Shown: positions 17,541 to 62,930, counted from the first letter of the stretch. The stretch is DNA of 64,000 nucleotides from Escherichia phage vB_EcoM-G157lw (OK331996.1), one strand, 5' to 3'. The notes: generated by a model from the sequence alone, not told the origin. Program-made: numbers and translations.

Positions 17541-17570
17541 GTTTACATCCTTGTCCTTCCATGGTACTAT
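17541..17570 (+). promoter_or_regulatory. early promoter with conserved leader (PeSL-like cassette)
   Basis: GTTTAC, TACTAT, then conserved ACAACTATCAACTACTGATACAG leader. Confidence 0.55.
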
Positions 17571-17613
17571 ACAACTATCAACTACTGATACAGAAAACAA
17601 CTTGGAGAATGAA

Positions 17614-32390: not shown

Positions 32391-32420
32391 GTTTACAAGC
32401 ATAAAGCTTTATGGTACTAT
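32391..32420 (+). promoter_or_regulatory. early promoter with conserved leader (PeSL-like cassette)
   Basis: GTTTAC, TACTAT, conserved ACAACTATCAACTGATAC leader. Confidence 0.55.
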
Positions 32421-32454
32421 ACAACTATCAACTGATACGGATTTGGAGAATAAA

Positions 32455-34523: not shown

Positions 34524-34525
34524 TT

Positions 34526-34555
34526 GTTTACAAGACCGTTCCTCTGTGGTACTAT
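34526..34555 (+). promoter_or_regulatory. early promoter with conserved leader
   Basis: GTTTAC, TACTAT, ACAACTATCAACTAC. Confidence 0.5.
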
Positions 34556-34583
34556 ACAACTATCAACTACGGAGGAACAGAAA

Positions 34584-45526: not shown

Positions 45527-45596
45527 ACATTCTGTATATTACCATTCTAAGCTATCGTTCCCTTCTTATCATTCCCTAAAATAATTTTCACAAAGT

Positions 45597-45627
45597 TGTT
45601 TACAACAAGTTCAAACCGTGGTATTAT
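45597..45627 (+). promoter_or_regulatory. early promoter (GTTTAC / TGGTATTAT)
   Basis: AT-rich UP region, GTTTACA, extended -10. Confidence 0.55.
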
Positions 45628-57430: not shown

Positions 57431-60127
57431 ATGAAAGAATTTTATATCTCTATCGAAACAGTCGGAAATAACATTGTTGAACGTTATATTGATGAAAACG
57501 GAAAGGAACGTACTCGTGAAGTAGAATATCTTCCAACTATGTTTAGGCATTGTAAGGAAGAGTCAAAGTACAAAGACATCTATGGTAAAAACTGCGCTCC
57601 TCAAAAATTTCCATCAATGAAAGATGCTCGAGATTGGATGAAACGAATGGAAGACATCGGTCTCGAAGCTCTCGGTATGAACGATTTTAAACTCGCTTAT
57701 ATCAGTGATACATACGGTTCAGAAATTGTTTATGACCGAAAATTTGTTCGTGTAGCTAACTGTGACATTGAGGTTACTGGTGATAAATTTCCTGACCCAA
57801 TGAAAGCAGAATATGAAATTGATGCTATCACTCATTACGATTCAATTGATGATCGTTTTTATGTTTTCGACCTTTTGAATTCAATGTATGGTTCAGTATC
57901 AAAATGGGATGCAAAGTTAGCTGCTAAGCTTGACTGTGAAGGTGGTGATGAAGTTCCTCAAGAAATTCTTGACCGAGTAATTTATATGCCATTCGATAAT
58001 GAGCGTGATATGCTCATGGAATATATCAATCTCTGGGAACAGAAACGACCTGCCATTTTTACTGGTTGGAATATTGAGGGATTTGACGTTCCGTATATCA
58101 TGAATCGCGTTAAAATGGTTCTCGGTGAACGTAGTATGAAACGCTTCTCTCCAATCGGTCGAGTAAAATCTAAACTTATCCAAAATATGTACGGTAGCAA
58201 AGAAATTTATTCTATTGATGGCGTATCTATTCTTGATTATTTAGATTTGTATAAGAAATTCGCATTTACTAATTTGCCGTCATTCTCTTTGGAATCAGTT
58301 GCTCAGCATGAAACCAAAAAAGGTAAATTACCATACGACGGTCCTATTAATAAACTTCGTGAGACTAATCATCAACGATACATTAGTTATAACATCATTG
58401 ACGTAGAATCAGTTCAAGCAATTGATAAAATTCGCGGGTTTATCGATCTAGTTTTAAGTATGTCTTATTACGCTAAAATGCCTTTTTCTGGTGTAATGAG
58501 TCCTATTAAAACTTGGGATGCTATTATTTTTAACTCATTGAAAGGTGAACATAAGGTTATTCCTCAACAAGGTTCGCACGTTAAACAAAGTTTTCCGGGT
58601 GCATTTGTATTTGAACCTAAACCAATTGCTCGTCGATATATTATGAGTTTTGACTTGACGTCTCTATATCCTAGCATTATTCGTCAGGTTAACATTAGTC
58701 CTGAGACTATTCGTGGACAATTTAAAGTTCATCCAATTCATGAATATATCGCAGGAACAGCTCCTAAACCGAGTGATGAATATTCTTGTTCTCCGAATGG
58801 ATGGATGTATGATAAGCATCAAGAAGGTATCATTCCAAAGGAAATCGCTAAAGTATTTTTCCAGCGTAAAGACTGGAAAAAGAAAATGTTCGCTGAAGAA
58901 ATGAATGCCGAAGCTATTAAAAAGATTATTATGAAAGGCGCAGGGTCTTGTTCAACTAAACCGGAAGTTGAACGATATGTTAAGTTCAGTGATGATTTCT
59001 TAAATGAACTATCGAATTATACTGAATCTGTTCTCAATAGTTTGATTGAAGAATGTGAAAAAGCGGCTACACTTGCTAATACAAATCAGCTGAACCGTAA
59101 AATTCTTATTAACAGCCTTTACGGTGCTCTTGGTAATATTCATTTCCGTTACTATGATTTGCGAAATGCTACTGCTATCACAATTTTTGGTCAAGTTGGT
59201 ATTCAGTGGATTGCTCGTAAAATTAATGAGTATCTGAATAAAGTGTGCGGAACTAATGGTGAAGATTTCATCGCAGCAGGTGATACTGATTCGGTATATG
59301 TTTGTGTAGATAAAGTTATTGAAAAAGTTGGTCTTGACCGATTCAAAGAGCAGAACGATTTAGTTGAATTCATGAATCAGTTCGGTAAGAAAAAGATGGA
59401 ACCTATGATTGATGTTGCATATCGTGAGTTATGTGATTATATGAATAACCGCGAGCATCTGATGCATATGGACCGTGAAGCTATTTCTTGCCCTCCACTT
59501 GGTTCAAAGGGCGTTGGTGGATTTTGGAAAGCGAAAAAGCGTTATGCTCTGAACGTTTATGATATGGAAGATAAGCGATTTGCTGAACCGCATCTAAAAA
59601 TCATGGGTATGGAAACTCAGCAAAGTTCAACGCCTAAAGCGGTTCAAGAAGCTCTTGAAGAAAGTATTCGTCGTATTCTTCAAGAAGGCGAAGAGTCTGT
59701 TCAAGAATATTATAAGAACTTTGAGAAAGAATATCGTCAACTTGACTATAAAGTTATTGCTGAAGTAAAAACTGCGAACGATATAGCGAAATATGATGAT
59801 AAAGGTTGGCCAGGATTTAAATGTCCATTCCATATTCGTGGTGTGTTAACTTATCGTCGAGCTGTTAGTGGTCTGGGTGTAGCTCCAATTTTGGATGGAA
59901 ATAAAGTAATGGTTCTTCCATTGCGTGAAGGAAACCCATTTGGTGACAAATGCATTGCTTGGCCGTCGGGCACAGAACTTCCAAAAGAAATTCGTTCTGA
60001 CGTACTGTCTTGGATTGACTACTCAACTTTGTTCCAAAAATCGTTTGTTAAACCGCTTGCGGGTATGTGTGAATCGGCTGGTATGGACTATGAGGAAAAA
60101 GCTTCGTTAGACTTCCTGTTTGGCTGA
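57431..60127 (+). CDS. 43: DNA polymerase gp43 (family B)
   Basis: 898 aa; exo and pol motifs incl DTDS. Confidence 0.95.
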   Translation: MKEFYISIETVGNNIVERYIDENGKERTREVEYLPTMFRHCKEESKYKDIYGKNCAPQKFPSMKDARDWMKRMEDIGLEALGMNDFKLAYISDTYGSEIVYDRKFVRVANCDIEVTGDKFPDPMKAEYEIDAITHYDSIDDRFYVFDLLNSMYGSVSKWDAKLAAKLDCEGGDEVPQEILDRVIYMPFDNERDMLMEYINLWEQKRPAIFTGWNIEGFDVPYIMNRVKMVLGERSMKRFSPIGRVKSKLIQNMYGSKEIYSIDGVSILDYLDLYKKFAFTNLPSFSLESVAQHETKKGKLPYDGPINKLRETNHQRYISYNIIDVESVQAIDKIRGFIDLVLSMSYYAKMPFSGVMSPIKTWDAIIFNSLKGEHKVIPQQGSHVKQSFPGAFVFEPKPIARRYIMSFDLTSLYPSIIRQVNISPETIRGQFKVHPIHEYIAGTAPKPSDEYSCSPNGWMYDKHQEGIIPKEIAKVFFQRKDWKKKMFAEEMNAEAIKKIIMKGAGSCSTKPEVERYVKFSDDFLNELSNYTESVLNSLIEECEKAATLANTNQLNRKILINSLYGALGNIHFRYYDLRNATAITIFGQVGIQWIARKINEYLNKVCGTNGEDFIAAGDTDSVYVCVDKVIEKVGLDRFKEQNDLVEFMNQFGKKKMEPMIDVAYRELCDYMNNREHLMHMDREAISCPPLGSKGVGGFWKAKKRYALNVYDMEDKRFAEPHLKIMGMETQQSSTPKAVQEALEESIRRILQEGEESVQEYYKNFEKEYRQLDYKVIAEVKTANDIAKYDDKGWPGFKCPFHIRGVLTYRRAVSGLGVAPILDGNKVMVLPLREGNPFGDKCIAWPSGTELPKEIRSDVLSWIDYSTLFQKSFVKPLAGMCESAGMDYEEKASLDFLFG

Positions 60128-60140
60128 TAGAATAAATCTA

Positions 60141-60161
60141 GGGACCTCCGGGTCCCTTTTT
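60141..60161 (+). terminator. intrinsic terminator
   Basis: GGGACC tccg GGTCCC then TTTTT. Confidence 0.75.
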
Positions 60162-60243
60162 CATACAAGTAATATAAATCTATACTTATGAAAAACAGAT
60201 GATTCTGGACATTTAGAATTCCCTAAAAAATTTTCACAAAACT

Positions 60244-60273
60244 GTTTACAAGACTGTTCCTCTGCGGTACTAT
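60244..60273 (+). promoter_or_regulatory. early promoter with conserved leader (PeSL-like cassette)
   Basis: GTTTAC, TACTAT, ACAACTATCAACTACTGATACAG. Confidence 0.55.
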
Positions 60274-60310
60274 ACAACTATCAACTACTGATACAGATTT
60301 GGAGAATAAA

Positions 60311-60547
60311 ATGAAAATTGTTATGGGATGCTTAGCAGTTTGTTTAGTTGCATTAGCAGCAGTTCCATTTGTTAGTGTTGAAAATGATACTCAACCTATG
60401 ATTGAATCTAGCACCGTTATTCACACTAATGGTAAAATATCAGTTAAAATTGATGATAATCTTCATGTGAATACAAATGGATCTTTAGGTGTACAAATAG
60501 GTAATACCTGCATAAGCACTACTGGAGTAATTACTACTTGCATTTGA
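60311..60547 (+). CDS. small secreted protein
   Basis: ATG 60311 after GGAG (track start is TTG); signal peptide MKIVMGCLAVCLVALAA. Confidence 0.55.
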   Translation: MKIVMGCLAVCLVALAAVPFVSVENDTQPMIESSTVIHTNGKISVKIDDNLHVNTNGSLGVQIGNTCISTTGVITTCI

Positions 60548-60557
60548 GGAAATTATT

Positions 60558-60938
60558 ATGAAAATCGCTATTTTGGTTATTGCATTAGGTCTTACTGGTT
60601 GTGTAGCTCAAGGACCGGTAGTAAATCAGTCTGATGTAGGAAAAATTGTAAATTGTTCAAGTAAATTTTATAATCCTAATGTCAAGTGTTATAAAGAAGC
60701 TCCAAAGCAAACAGTAGAACAAATGCAGGCGAATTTTGACGAAGCTATTCGTCCAGATGAATCTGCTCAAGCATATCGTAATTCGGATGTAATTACACGC
60801 GAAGAAAAAATTGAAAACTACTGCGCCGAGCTTTGGGCTAATTGGGCTAATAATTACCAATGGCGTACCGGTAAAAATGCTCCGATGGAGTATGTAGTGA
60901 ATTCTTATAATTCATGCGTAAAAAATTTAACTAAGTGA
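60558..60938 (+). CDS. lipoprotein
   Basis: 126 aa; signal peptide with lipobox LTGC; Cys-rich mature part. Confidence 0.65.
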   Translation: MKIAILVIALGLTGCVAQGPVVNQSDVGKIVNCSSKFYNPNVKCYKEAPKQTVEQMQANFDEAIRPDESAQAYRNSDVITREEKIENYCAELWANWANNYQWRTGKNAPMEYVVNSYNSCVKNLTK

Positions 60939-60945
60939 GGAAAAC

Positions 60946-61197
60946 ATGGAAACTTTAGTAGCAGGTTCAATTTTTATGGTTTTAGTTTCAGGTGTGTTGG
61001 CTATTATTATATACATGCTTCCATGGTTCATCGCCTTGATGCGTGGGTCAAAATCGACAGTAGGAATCTTTTTCACGTCTTTACTGTTTAACTGGTCAAT
61101 TATTGGTTGGTTTATTACATTTATTTGGTCAATTGCGGGTGAAACTAAAAAGTCTGCACAGCCAAATCAGGTAATTATCATCAGAGAGAAGGAATGA
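60946..61197 (+). CDS. imm: superinfection immunity membrane protein Imm
   Basis: 83 aa, two TM helices, position between 43 and 42. Confidence 0.7.
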   Translation: METLVAGSIFMVLVSGVLAIIIYMLPWFIALMRGSKSTVGIFFTSLLFNWSIIGWFITFIWSIAGETKKSAQPNQVIIIREKE

Positions 61198-61343
61198 AAA
61201 GCAAAATTATAGCAGTGTTGCTTTTAATCTTGATGATTATAATAAGTATATACTATAGTGTAACGGTTCCTCTTATGATTCCAACTATTATTTTAGGTTG
61301 GAGCTTATTACTGTTACAAGTTAAATATGAATGTATCAATTGA
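61194..61343 (+). CDS. small membrane peptide
   Basis: 49 aa, ATGA-coupled to imm; not in ORF track. Confidence 0.45.
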   Translation: MKSKIIAVLLLILMIIISIYYSVTVPLMIPTIILGWSLLLLQVKYECIN

Positions 61344-61350
61344 GGTTTAA

Positions 61351-62091
61351 ATGATTAGTGACTCTATGACAGTTGAAGAAATCCGTCTTCATTTGGGGCT
61401 TGCATTAAAAGAAAAAGATTTCGTAGTTGATAAAACTGGTGTTAAAACTATTGAAATTATTGGCGCATCATTTGTAGCAGATGAACCGTTTATTTTTGGC
61501 GCTCTTAATGATGAATACATTCAGCGTGAACTTGAATGGTATAAATCTAAGAGCTTGTTCGTTAAAGATATTCCAGGTGAAACACCGAAGATTTGGCAAC
61601 AAGTAGCATCTTCTAAAGGCGAAATTAACTCGAATTATGGTTGGGCTATTTGGTCAGAAGATAACTATGCCCAGTATGATATGTGTTTAGCTGAACTTGG
61701 TCAAAATCCTGATTCTCGACGTGGTATCATGATTTATACTCGTCCATCCATGCAATTTGACTATAATAAAGATGGTATGTCAGATTTCATGTGTACTAAT
61801 ACAGTACAGTACCTGATTCGTGATAAGAAAGTAAATGCAGTAGTAAGCATGCGCTCAAATGACGTGGTCTTCGGATTCCGTAATGATTATGCATGGCAAA
61901 AATACGTATTAGATAAATTAGTATCTGATTTGAATGCCGGCGATTCAACTCGTCAGTATAAAGCAGGTTCTATTATATGGAATGTCGGAAGTCTTCATGT
62001 ATATTCTCGTCATTTTTACTTGGTTGATCATTGGTGGAATACTGGCGAAACTCATATTGTGAAAAAAGACTATAAAGGTGTGTGGAAATGA
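61351..62091 (+). CDS. 42: dCMP hydroxymethylase gp42
   Basis: 246 aa, thymidylate-synthase-like fold, synteny. Confidence 0.85.
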   Translation: MISDSMTVEEIRLHLGLALKEKDFVVDKTGVKTIEIIGASFVADEPFIFGALNDEYIQRELEWYKSKSLFVKDIPGETPKIWQQVASSKGEINSNYGWAIWSEDNYAQYDMCLAELGQNPDSRRGIMIYTRPSMQFDYNKDGMSDFMCTNTVQYLIRDKKVNAVVSMRSNDVVFGFRNDYAWQKYVLDKLVSDLNAGDSTRQYKAGSIIWNVGSLHVYSRHFYLVDHWWNTGETHIVKKDYKGVWK

Positions 62092-62930
62092 TTCAATTCG
62101 TAATTCCAAGTTATCAGCGTGTCGGGGCAGTTTCTGCCCTTGATATGTTTCCGACTGATTATGAACCGCATATTGTAGTGCGTGAACATGAAGAAAAAGC
62201 TTATTATGATGCCTATGGGTCTAGAGCTAAAATTATAACTATTCCTGATGATGTAAACGGAATTGCCGGTACTCGTAAAGCAATTACTGATATGTATGCA
62301 GGTCAACGAATCTGGATGATTGACGATGATACTACTATTCGTATGAGTTCAATGCGAAAAAGAGATGACCGTCGTTGTGTAGATAAAGTCAATCAATTAA
62401 CCCGTGAACAGTTCTATGAATTGATTCAATACGTCGAAGATGCCATGGATTGCGGGTATTATCACGGTCATGCTCGTCTACCTATTTTTAAAATTACTTC
62501 ATCTTGGGGTAATTATCGTGAAAATTCATATGGATTCACGAATACATGGTATGACCTTGGAAAACTTACGACAGAACAAATTGGGTATGGAAAAATTGAT
62601 TTGTGCGAAGATATGTATGCATTTCTCAATTTAATTAATCAAGGTTATCCGCATTTGGCCTTGTTCAAATATCTGGTTGTATCTGGAAAAGCACAAGCTC
62701 CTGGCGGGTGTAGTTCAATTCGTAGTAATTCTAAACATAATAGAGCGCTTGAGCAAATCAATAGAGAGTTTCCAGAGCAAGCTCGTTGGAAAACTTCTAA
62801 TATTGAAAAACGAAAATCGTTGGGTGAAGAAGACGAGCCATTAAAGGTTCTTCGCATGTGTGTTTCGCGTAAAGAAAAATCAGAAGCATTTCATAAGTTT
62901 AATGCTATTCATCCAATAGCAGTTGATTAA
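62088..62930 (+). CDS. glycosyltransferase with DXD motif at the T4 beta-gt locus (candidate beta-glucosyl-HMC-alpha-glucosyltransferase)
   Basis: ATG 62088 ATGA-coupled to gene 42; 280 aa; IWMIDDDTTI; unlike T4 beta-gt in size and N-terminus. Confidence 0.55.
   Translation: MIQFVIPSYQRVGAVSALDMFPTDYEPHIVVREHEEKAYYDAYGSRAKIITIPDDVNGIAGTRKAITDMYAGQRIWMIDDDTTIRMSSMRKRDDRRCVDKVNQLTREQFYELIQYVEDAMDCGYYHGHARLPIFKITSSWGNYRENSYGFTNTWYDLGKLTTEQIGYGKIDLCEDMYAFLNLINQGYPHLALFKYLVVSGKAQAPGGCSSIRSNSKHNRALEQINREFPEQARWKTSNIEKRKSLGEEDEPLKVLRMCVSRKEKSEAFHKFNAIHPIAVD

Follow-up and report, generated by a model that had tools for sequence, protein, structure and literature searches.

Superinfection exclusion by the T-even phages is a classic system and is usually told with two genes, imm and sp. 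Superinfecting T-even phages still adsorb to the cell and eject into the periplasm, and T2, T4 and T6 use different receptors. T4 Spackle (gp61.3) is a periplasmic inhibitor of the tail lysozyme gp5 and acts against secondary infection. Among other phages, the lytic phage T5 produces early an outer-membrane lipoprotein, Llp. For Imm, a mechanism was proposed only in 2026 in a preprint, according to which genome translocation is stopped at the inner membrane when Imm binds the tape-measure protein gp29 of the incoming phage at its helical-bundle domain. Plasmid-borne Imm alone excluded T4 in that study. The preprint makes no mention of Imm.1, the product of a gene next to imm.

The locus was analysed in Escherichia phage vB_EcoM-G157lw (OK331996.1), in a stretch of 64,000 nucleotides (the window) whose coordinates are used here. 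A preliminary description of this DNA had reported a PeSL-like cassette followed by four ORFs between gene 43 and gene 42, and had regarded the envelope-targeted products next to imm as plausible extra factors for superinfection exclusion or for blocking injection. The cassette and all four ORFs were recovered on the + strand at the positions given below. Comparative support for the exclusion idea was obtained for the lipoprotein Imm.1 only and not for gp42.1 or ORF78.

Layout of the region between genes 43 and 42

The region of 1.26 kb, together with its flanks, gave nucleotide matches to hundreds of Tequatrovirus genomes, with 96-99.8% identity to T-even phages. ECML-363 was the closest match (99.8%), and T4 was 96% identical to vB_EcoM-G157lw across the common part of the region. 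The source of the window is evidently a T2/T6-type Tequatrovirus.

The upstream context is gene 43 (57431..60127, + strand), an 898-aa ORF annotated as gp43 or DNA polymerase in ECML-363, T4 and others. It is followed by an intrinsic-terminator-like hairpin (60140..60157, +) with a 7-bp stem containing five GC pairs and then TTTTT, which represents the stem-loop half of the cassette and is an annotated terminator in NR1 and fPS-90. Further downstream lies a T4-type early-promoter-like site (60245..60273, +; TTTACA, 17 nt, TACTAT), which carries the label “predicted early promoter” in fPS-90. The promoter block at 60243-60310 has further copies within the window at 34525-34570 (96% identity), 17563-17594, 32413-32454 and 45571-45605. 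PeSLs combine a terminator stem-loop with an early promoter and occur as copies scattered over the genome (PMC4122927), and the hairpin and promoter at 60140-60273 form such a combination. The spacer between gene 43 and ORF78 was thus identified as a PeSL from the hairpin, the early promoter and the repetition of the promoter block elsewhere in the window. In these three respects and in its position between genes, it is like the PeSL cassettes described for T4-like phages (PMC2839356, PMC4122927).

ORF78, imm.1, imm and gp42.1 follow, and the gaps from ORF78 through to gene 42 are 10, 7, -4 and 7 nt. The downstream context is gene 42 (61351..62091, +), coding for dCMP hydroxymethylase (PF00303; gp42 in T4). 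The same genes in the same order are found in the imm.1-imm region of T4 (AF158101), taken together with “gp42.1” of RB51 and VR7 and orf054c of RB69. The arrangement would correspond to a T-even “43-to-42” early transcription unit in which the PeSL-type cassette drives four small envelope-targeted proteins. The gene after gene 42 (62082-62930) belongs to the TAGT family (PF20691; phrog_842, beta-glucosyl-HMC-alpha-glucosyltransferase). While T4 has beta-gt at this place, vB_EcoM-G157lw has this T2/T6-type glucosyltransferase, which overlaps the end of gene 42.

Selection was assessed by pN/pS, calculated from pooled pairwise comparisons of 8-10 Tequatrovirus loci and compared between reading frames. 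The values were 0.029 for imm.1, 0.043 for imm, 0.40 for ORF78 and 0.50 for gp42.1, and for each of the four genes the annotated frame gave the lowest value. Since pN/pS is minimal in the annotated frame and gp42.1 has protein-level homologues in at least seven genera, the four ORFs are, by these measures, genuine genes under selection and not chance ORFs. None of them is new: according to sequence comparison, all are already catalogued and near-identical to genes in hundreds of sequenced phages. ORF78 is a hypothetical protein in many genome annotations, and Imm.1 is listed as “hypothetical predicted membrane protein” in that of T4. Full-text literature searches yielded no functional study of Imm.1, gp42.1 or ORF78, no mention of DUF5481 (the Pfam family of Imm.1), the term “imm.1” in one paper only and as a group marker, and nothing relevant on T4 ribosome-profiling evidence for small ORFs. 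PADLOC and NCBIfam searches gave sub-threshold noise only, and PDB sequence searches with Imm.1, Imm and ORF78 gave no meaningful match.

ORF78, Imm and gp42.1

ORF78 (60311..60547, +; phrog_4189) encodes a protein that starts MKIVMGCLAVCLVALAAVPFVSVEND, and its ATG is preceded by GGAG. Signal-peptide and lipoprotein calls were made with sequence-based rules. They agreed with the claim of a 78-aa secreted protein insofar as the N-terminus is signal-peptide-like, with K2 as its one lysine, a stretch of about 20 hydrophobic residues and, at residues 14-17, the site A-L-A|A, which is conserved in variants. A pattern check found no classic lipobox in ORF78 of vB_EcoM-G157lw. The N-terminus may equally well be a signal peptide or a signal anchor; the latter is suggested by the length of the hydrophobic region, which 7-residue duplications extend further in some phages. 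The C-terminal part is beta-rich with TNG-x-h-x-V-x-I repeats. The AF2 model (pLDDT 53) was too poor for a fold search.

The ORF is present in 325 phage records, all at the level of Tequatrovirus similarity and with an open frame throughout. Compared with 501 records of Tequatrovirus-type Imm.1, this corresponds to about 65%. No distant relatives were found in the phage collection or in an index of 5.8 billion proteins. T4 lacks ORF78 by a clean 247-bp indel, which ends on either side in ATGAAAAT, the sequence at the starts of ORF78 and imm.1. The indel is flanked by this 8-bp repeat at two start codons and not by two PeSLs. The metagenomic lineages L026 and L027, with the order gene 43, lipoprotein, imm, have no ORF78 either. 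Its absence from these two divergent lineages suggests that it was gained within Tequatrovirus. Taken together, ORF78 is best described, from its distribution and substitution pattern, as a dispensable, lineage-specific accessory protein that is exported or anchored and under relaxed constraint.

Several phages have in-frame 21-bp tandem duplications (CLVALA[A/V]) in the hydrophobic region (window 60330-60365), which lead to variants of 85-89 aa; they were seen at loci L008, L009 and L011 near position 340. Some duplicated variants gain a lipobox (LAAC, in some 85-aa forms), and UniRef names one of them “Lipoprotein”. In Shigella phage CT01 (L012, 310-958), ORF78 is replaced by a chimera of imm.1 codons 1-32 and the 3' part of ORF78, followed by a second copy of the promoter/Shine-Dalgarno block and an intact imm.1. 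This arrangement indicates recombination between the repeated start or promoter blocks. The rearranged CT01 copy is the only one with a duplicated promoter block at this locus.

Imm (60946..61197, +) matched the superinfection immunity family PF14373 with 7.7e-16 and 58.2 bits (cut-off 27.9). It is identical to T4 Imm in 82 of 83 residues, and from this near-identity we infer that it is the inner-membrane immunity protein which blocks secondary entry of T-even genomes. Imm had been described as a two-helix protein, and two hydrophobic stretches (residues 1-34 and 39-65) were indeed found; the 2026 preprint, however, models four helices. The alternative start that gives a 94-aa Imm in T4, used for the cryo-EM construct in the preprint, is not conserved (window 60925-60950; T4, L003 2068-2352). 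In vB_EcoM-G157lw, imm is the 83-aa ORF only, since the end of imm.1 differs by 1 nt and the upstream ATG is thereby out of frame.

The 49-aa protein gp42.1 (61194..61343, +; phrog_3610, profile match 9.5e-26) is a predicted membrane hairpin of two hydrophobic segments with K/R solely at the two ends. It differs from its T4 counterpart in one residue. Homologues at the protein level were found in Mosigvirus, Gaprivervirus, Dhakavirus, Kanagawavirus, Winklervirus and two metagenomic lineages. The motif IYW..T.P.MIPTL..W..L.LQ.KYxCFN is conserved in 11 lineages, with the core P.MIPT..W..L.LQ.KYxC(F/I)N. The ORF is named gp42.1 in RB51 and VR7, orf44 in JS98 and orf054c in RB69, where the record notes “similar to T4 42-imm intercistronic region”. 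In T4 itself it is intact between imm and gene 42 (L003 2349-2498, AF158101) and unannotated there as well as in MT984581 (L021). In their annotations, RB69 orf054c (L005 2950-3093) and JS98 orf44 (L032 1734-1871) start at an internal Met and comprise 36 aa, whereas the ORFs backed by the family alignment start at the ATGA overlap and have 47 aa (RB69) and 45 aa (JS98).

The peptide had been described as coupled to imm, and its start does overlap the imm stop (ATGA). The coupling is positional, though, as the same overlap with the preceding stop occurs in all 11 lineages, irrespective of whether imm (five lineages) or arabinose-5-phosphate isomerase (Mosigvirus, Kanagawavirus, Winklervirus) lies upstream. 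It therefore belongs to gp42.1 and is not specific to imm. In RB69, Q7622, Kc304 and Gravdalen (L005, L022-L024), gene 43 is followed by isomerase and nucleotidyl-transferase genes instead of gene 42, and gp42.1 lies between these two, overlapping the isomerase stop. Translation of gp42.1 would begin by termination-reinitiation after whatever gene is upstream and give a small inner-membrane hairpin, whose role need not concern imm.

Both gp42.1 and ORF78 are weak candidates for a role in exclusion. We give even chances to the explanation that they are unrelated to it, with gp42.1 serving another early membrane function and ORF78 being a dispensable, recently acquired accessory gene. The indifference of the gp42.1 overlap to the upstream gene agrees with this, as do its distance of about 10 kb from imm in Mosigvirus, the absence of ORF78 from T4, from about 35% of the Tequatrovirus records and from L026 and L027, and the pN/pS values of 0.40-0.50 for the two genes. 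The position of gp42.1 directly after imm in five lineages speaks for a connection with exclusion, and so does the fact that both proteins are predicted to be envelope-targeted and probably co-transcribed with imm in vB_EcoM-G157lw.

Imm.1 and its lipoprotein family

A 126-aa lipoprotein with the lipobox LTGC had been predicted upstream of imm, and imm.1 (60558..60938, +) encodes exactly such a protein. It has K2, a hydrophobic region, and LTGC with Cys15 and Val at +2, and also fits a PS51257-like pattern. It matched Pfam DUF5481 over its full length (5.4e-72, 239 bits, cut-off 27) and the phrog_1754 profile with 5e-44. Compared to T4 Imm.1, it is about 99% identical, with one substitution, which lies in the lipobox (LTGC vs. 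LAGC in T4), and it is longer by one residue at the C-terminus. Identity of Imm.1 among hundreds of Tequatroviruses, T2, T4 and T6 included, is about 97-100%.

In 12 aligned lineages, the lipobox Gly(-Cys), Tyr38 and the pair Cys89/Cys120 are invariant, and all of them are present in Imm.1 of the window. The Cys pair, found in 12 of 12 sequences, fits a periplasmic disulfide. In one DUF5481 lineage the lipobox is replaced by a type-I signal peptide ending AHA|S; thus, export appears to be the conserved feature. Imm.1 is predicted to be lipidated and, since the residue at +2 is Val and not Asp (E. coli +2 rule), to be sorted by Lol to the outer membrane.

In the AF2 model of Imm.1 (mean pLDDT 70), a tether of about 35 residues, modelled with low confidence, precedes a C-terminal helical hairpin with pLDDT >90. 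Foldseek searches with this model retrieved nothing below E = 1 from the PDB and only the own family from BFVD. Without structural relatives outside the Imm.1 family, the fold gives no binding function. When 1.84 billion cluster representatives were searched exhaustively with phmmer, only six DUF5481 clusters were recovered, four of them divergent and beyond the reach of word-indexed search. Word-indexed protein searches with Imm.1 and ORF78 had given near-identical relatives only, and a scan of IMG/VR added little diversity. The phrog_1754 profile revealed a family wider than Pfam DUF5481, with full-length matches of E 7e-9 to 9e-52. While hhalign with the shallow DUF5481 profile aligned VR26_045 over the first 30 residues only, the PHROG profile supported full-length relatedness. 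Homology between Imm.1 and Spackle was considered and rejected, as the profile comparison aligned their signal peptides only.

A predicted outer-membrane lipoprotein which is made early by a lytic phage could also be a receptor-masking protein, like Llp of T5 or Cor of T1 and phi80, and block adsorption from the periplasmic side. This is very improbable for Imm.1. It is nearly invariant in T2, T4 and T6 despite their differing receptors, which led us to reject it as a masker of the Llp/Cor type. In addition, adsorption and ejection into the periplasm still take place in superinfection by T-even phages, and Imm.1 matched no solved structure by sequence or fold.

Association of the lipoprotein with imm and its possible role

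The main new result of the comparison is the synteny of the phrog_1754 lipoprotein with imm and gene 43. The DUF5481 gene lies directly upstream of imm in five of five lineages, namely Tequatrovirus (T4 and the window), Mosigvirus, and the metagenomic lineages L026, L027 and L029, which show 32-46% identity and have imm as the next gene downstream. This pair occurs in three different genomic contexts. In the wider family, phrog_1754 lipoproteins were located just after gene 43 or beside imm in 12 of 12 Tevenvirinae lineages sampled. Lipobox-bearing members flank imm in Gelderlandvirus, Jiaodavirus, Muldoonvirus phage WSPA, Dhakavirus and Gaprivervirus, the order being imm, 42.1, lipoprotein in the last two, and lipobox-bearing proteins are likewise found just after gene 43 or beside imm in Kanagawavirus and Winklervirus.

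In Mosigvirus, the Imm.1-Imm pair is relocated between genes 41 and 61. The order there is dmd, DUF7279, Imm.1, Imm, Spackle, and no other gene separates the last three. In phage MM02 (L006 2529-4030), the five genes are consecutive between the helicase (41) and primase (61) genes. Thus, all known exclusion genes stand in one block in this genus.

Imm.1 is a plausible candidate for an extra exclusion factor. We assign a probability of roughly 40% to the reading that it contributes to the same defence as Imm, whether it binds a component of the incoming tail or positions Imm. A periplasm-side role in this defence appears the likeliest one because the lipoprotein gene follows imm through several relocations and stands in a block with imm and spackle in Mosigvirus. 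After cleavage by signal peptidase II and lipidation at Cys15, Imm.1 would be sorted to the outer membrane, from which its flexible tether of about 35 residues with a conserved Y-N-P motif would reach into the periplasm and end in the disulfide-clamped helical hairpin. From there, Imm.1 could engage the tail tip, tube or tape-measure assembly of the incoming phage at a conserved part, or position Imm, and so supply a periplasm-side layer of defence against secondary T-even infection.

The same lipoprotein may instead have an envelope function independent of Imm, for example stabilising the outer membrane or peptidoglycan against lysis from without, signalling in lysis inhibition or modulating a host envelope machine. 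It would then stand near imm since both are early accessory genes after gene 43, and shared early timing in a region of variable gene content could alone keep the neighbours of imm adjacent. We consider this tentatively as a serious competitor. No other member of the cluster is as widespread as the lipoprotein: it is present in all 12 lineages sampled, while Imm is absent from or was not examined in two and gp42.1 is absent from about four. Kanagawavirus Q7622 carries the lipoprotein, gp42.1 and spackle, and no Imm was detected in the 144 of its 174 kb that were scanned with an HMM made from eight Imm sequences; the late structural-gene block is expected in the other 30 kb. On control loci the HMM scored 89-115 bits, but the control sequences had been used in building it. 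The lipoprotein can therefore occur where no Imm is detected. An independent role is also favoured by the lack of a fixed gene order, as seen in Gaprivervirus and Dhakavirus, and by the finding of the preprint that Imm by itself is enough for exclusion, from which it follows that Imm.1 is not required for the core effect. The position directly upstream of imm in all five DUF5481 lineages and in three contexts argues against such independence, and the joint relocation of DUF5481 and imm next to spackle is hard to square with position alone.

The reading that Imm.1 contributes to the same defence as Imm can be extended to the whole phrog_1754 family, which would then be a third T-even component against secondary infection, in series with Spackle and Imm. 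The family would act from the outer-membrane or periplasmic side, Spackle at the peptidoglycan step and Imm at the inner-membrane step. This extension seems rather doubtful. If true, the third component would be conserved across Tevenvirinae, including a genus without a detected Imm. Being strongly constrained and beside imm in most sampled T4-like genera, Imm.1 offers an inexpensive and clearly defined target for knockout and expression. The second point of general interest is that the T4 reference records miss gp42.1, a membrane-protein gene conserved in at least seven genera. Apart from these two points, the region is ordinary.

Among the described systems, Spackle is the one that Imm.1 resembles in being a small early protein exported to the periplasm, and in Mosigvirus its gene directly follows those of Imm.1 and Imm. 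However, Spackle is soluble and Imm.1 is predicted to be lipid-anchored, and the two are not homologous. HK97 gp15 and the immunity proteins against pore-forming colicins, which the 2026 preprint presents as analogues of Imm, are inner-membrane blockers of a tape-measure or pore-forming domain. The parallel concerns Imm alone. A lipoprotein partner is not described for those systems in the text consulted. Llp (T5) and Cor (T1, phi80, HK022) are, like Imm.1, phage-encoded predicted outer-membrane lipoproteins, but they share no sequence or structural likeness with it in Pfam, PDB sequence and fold searches.
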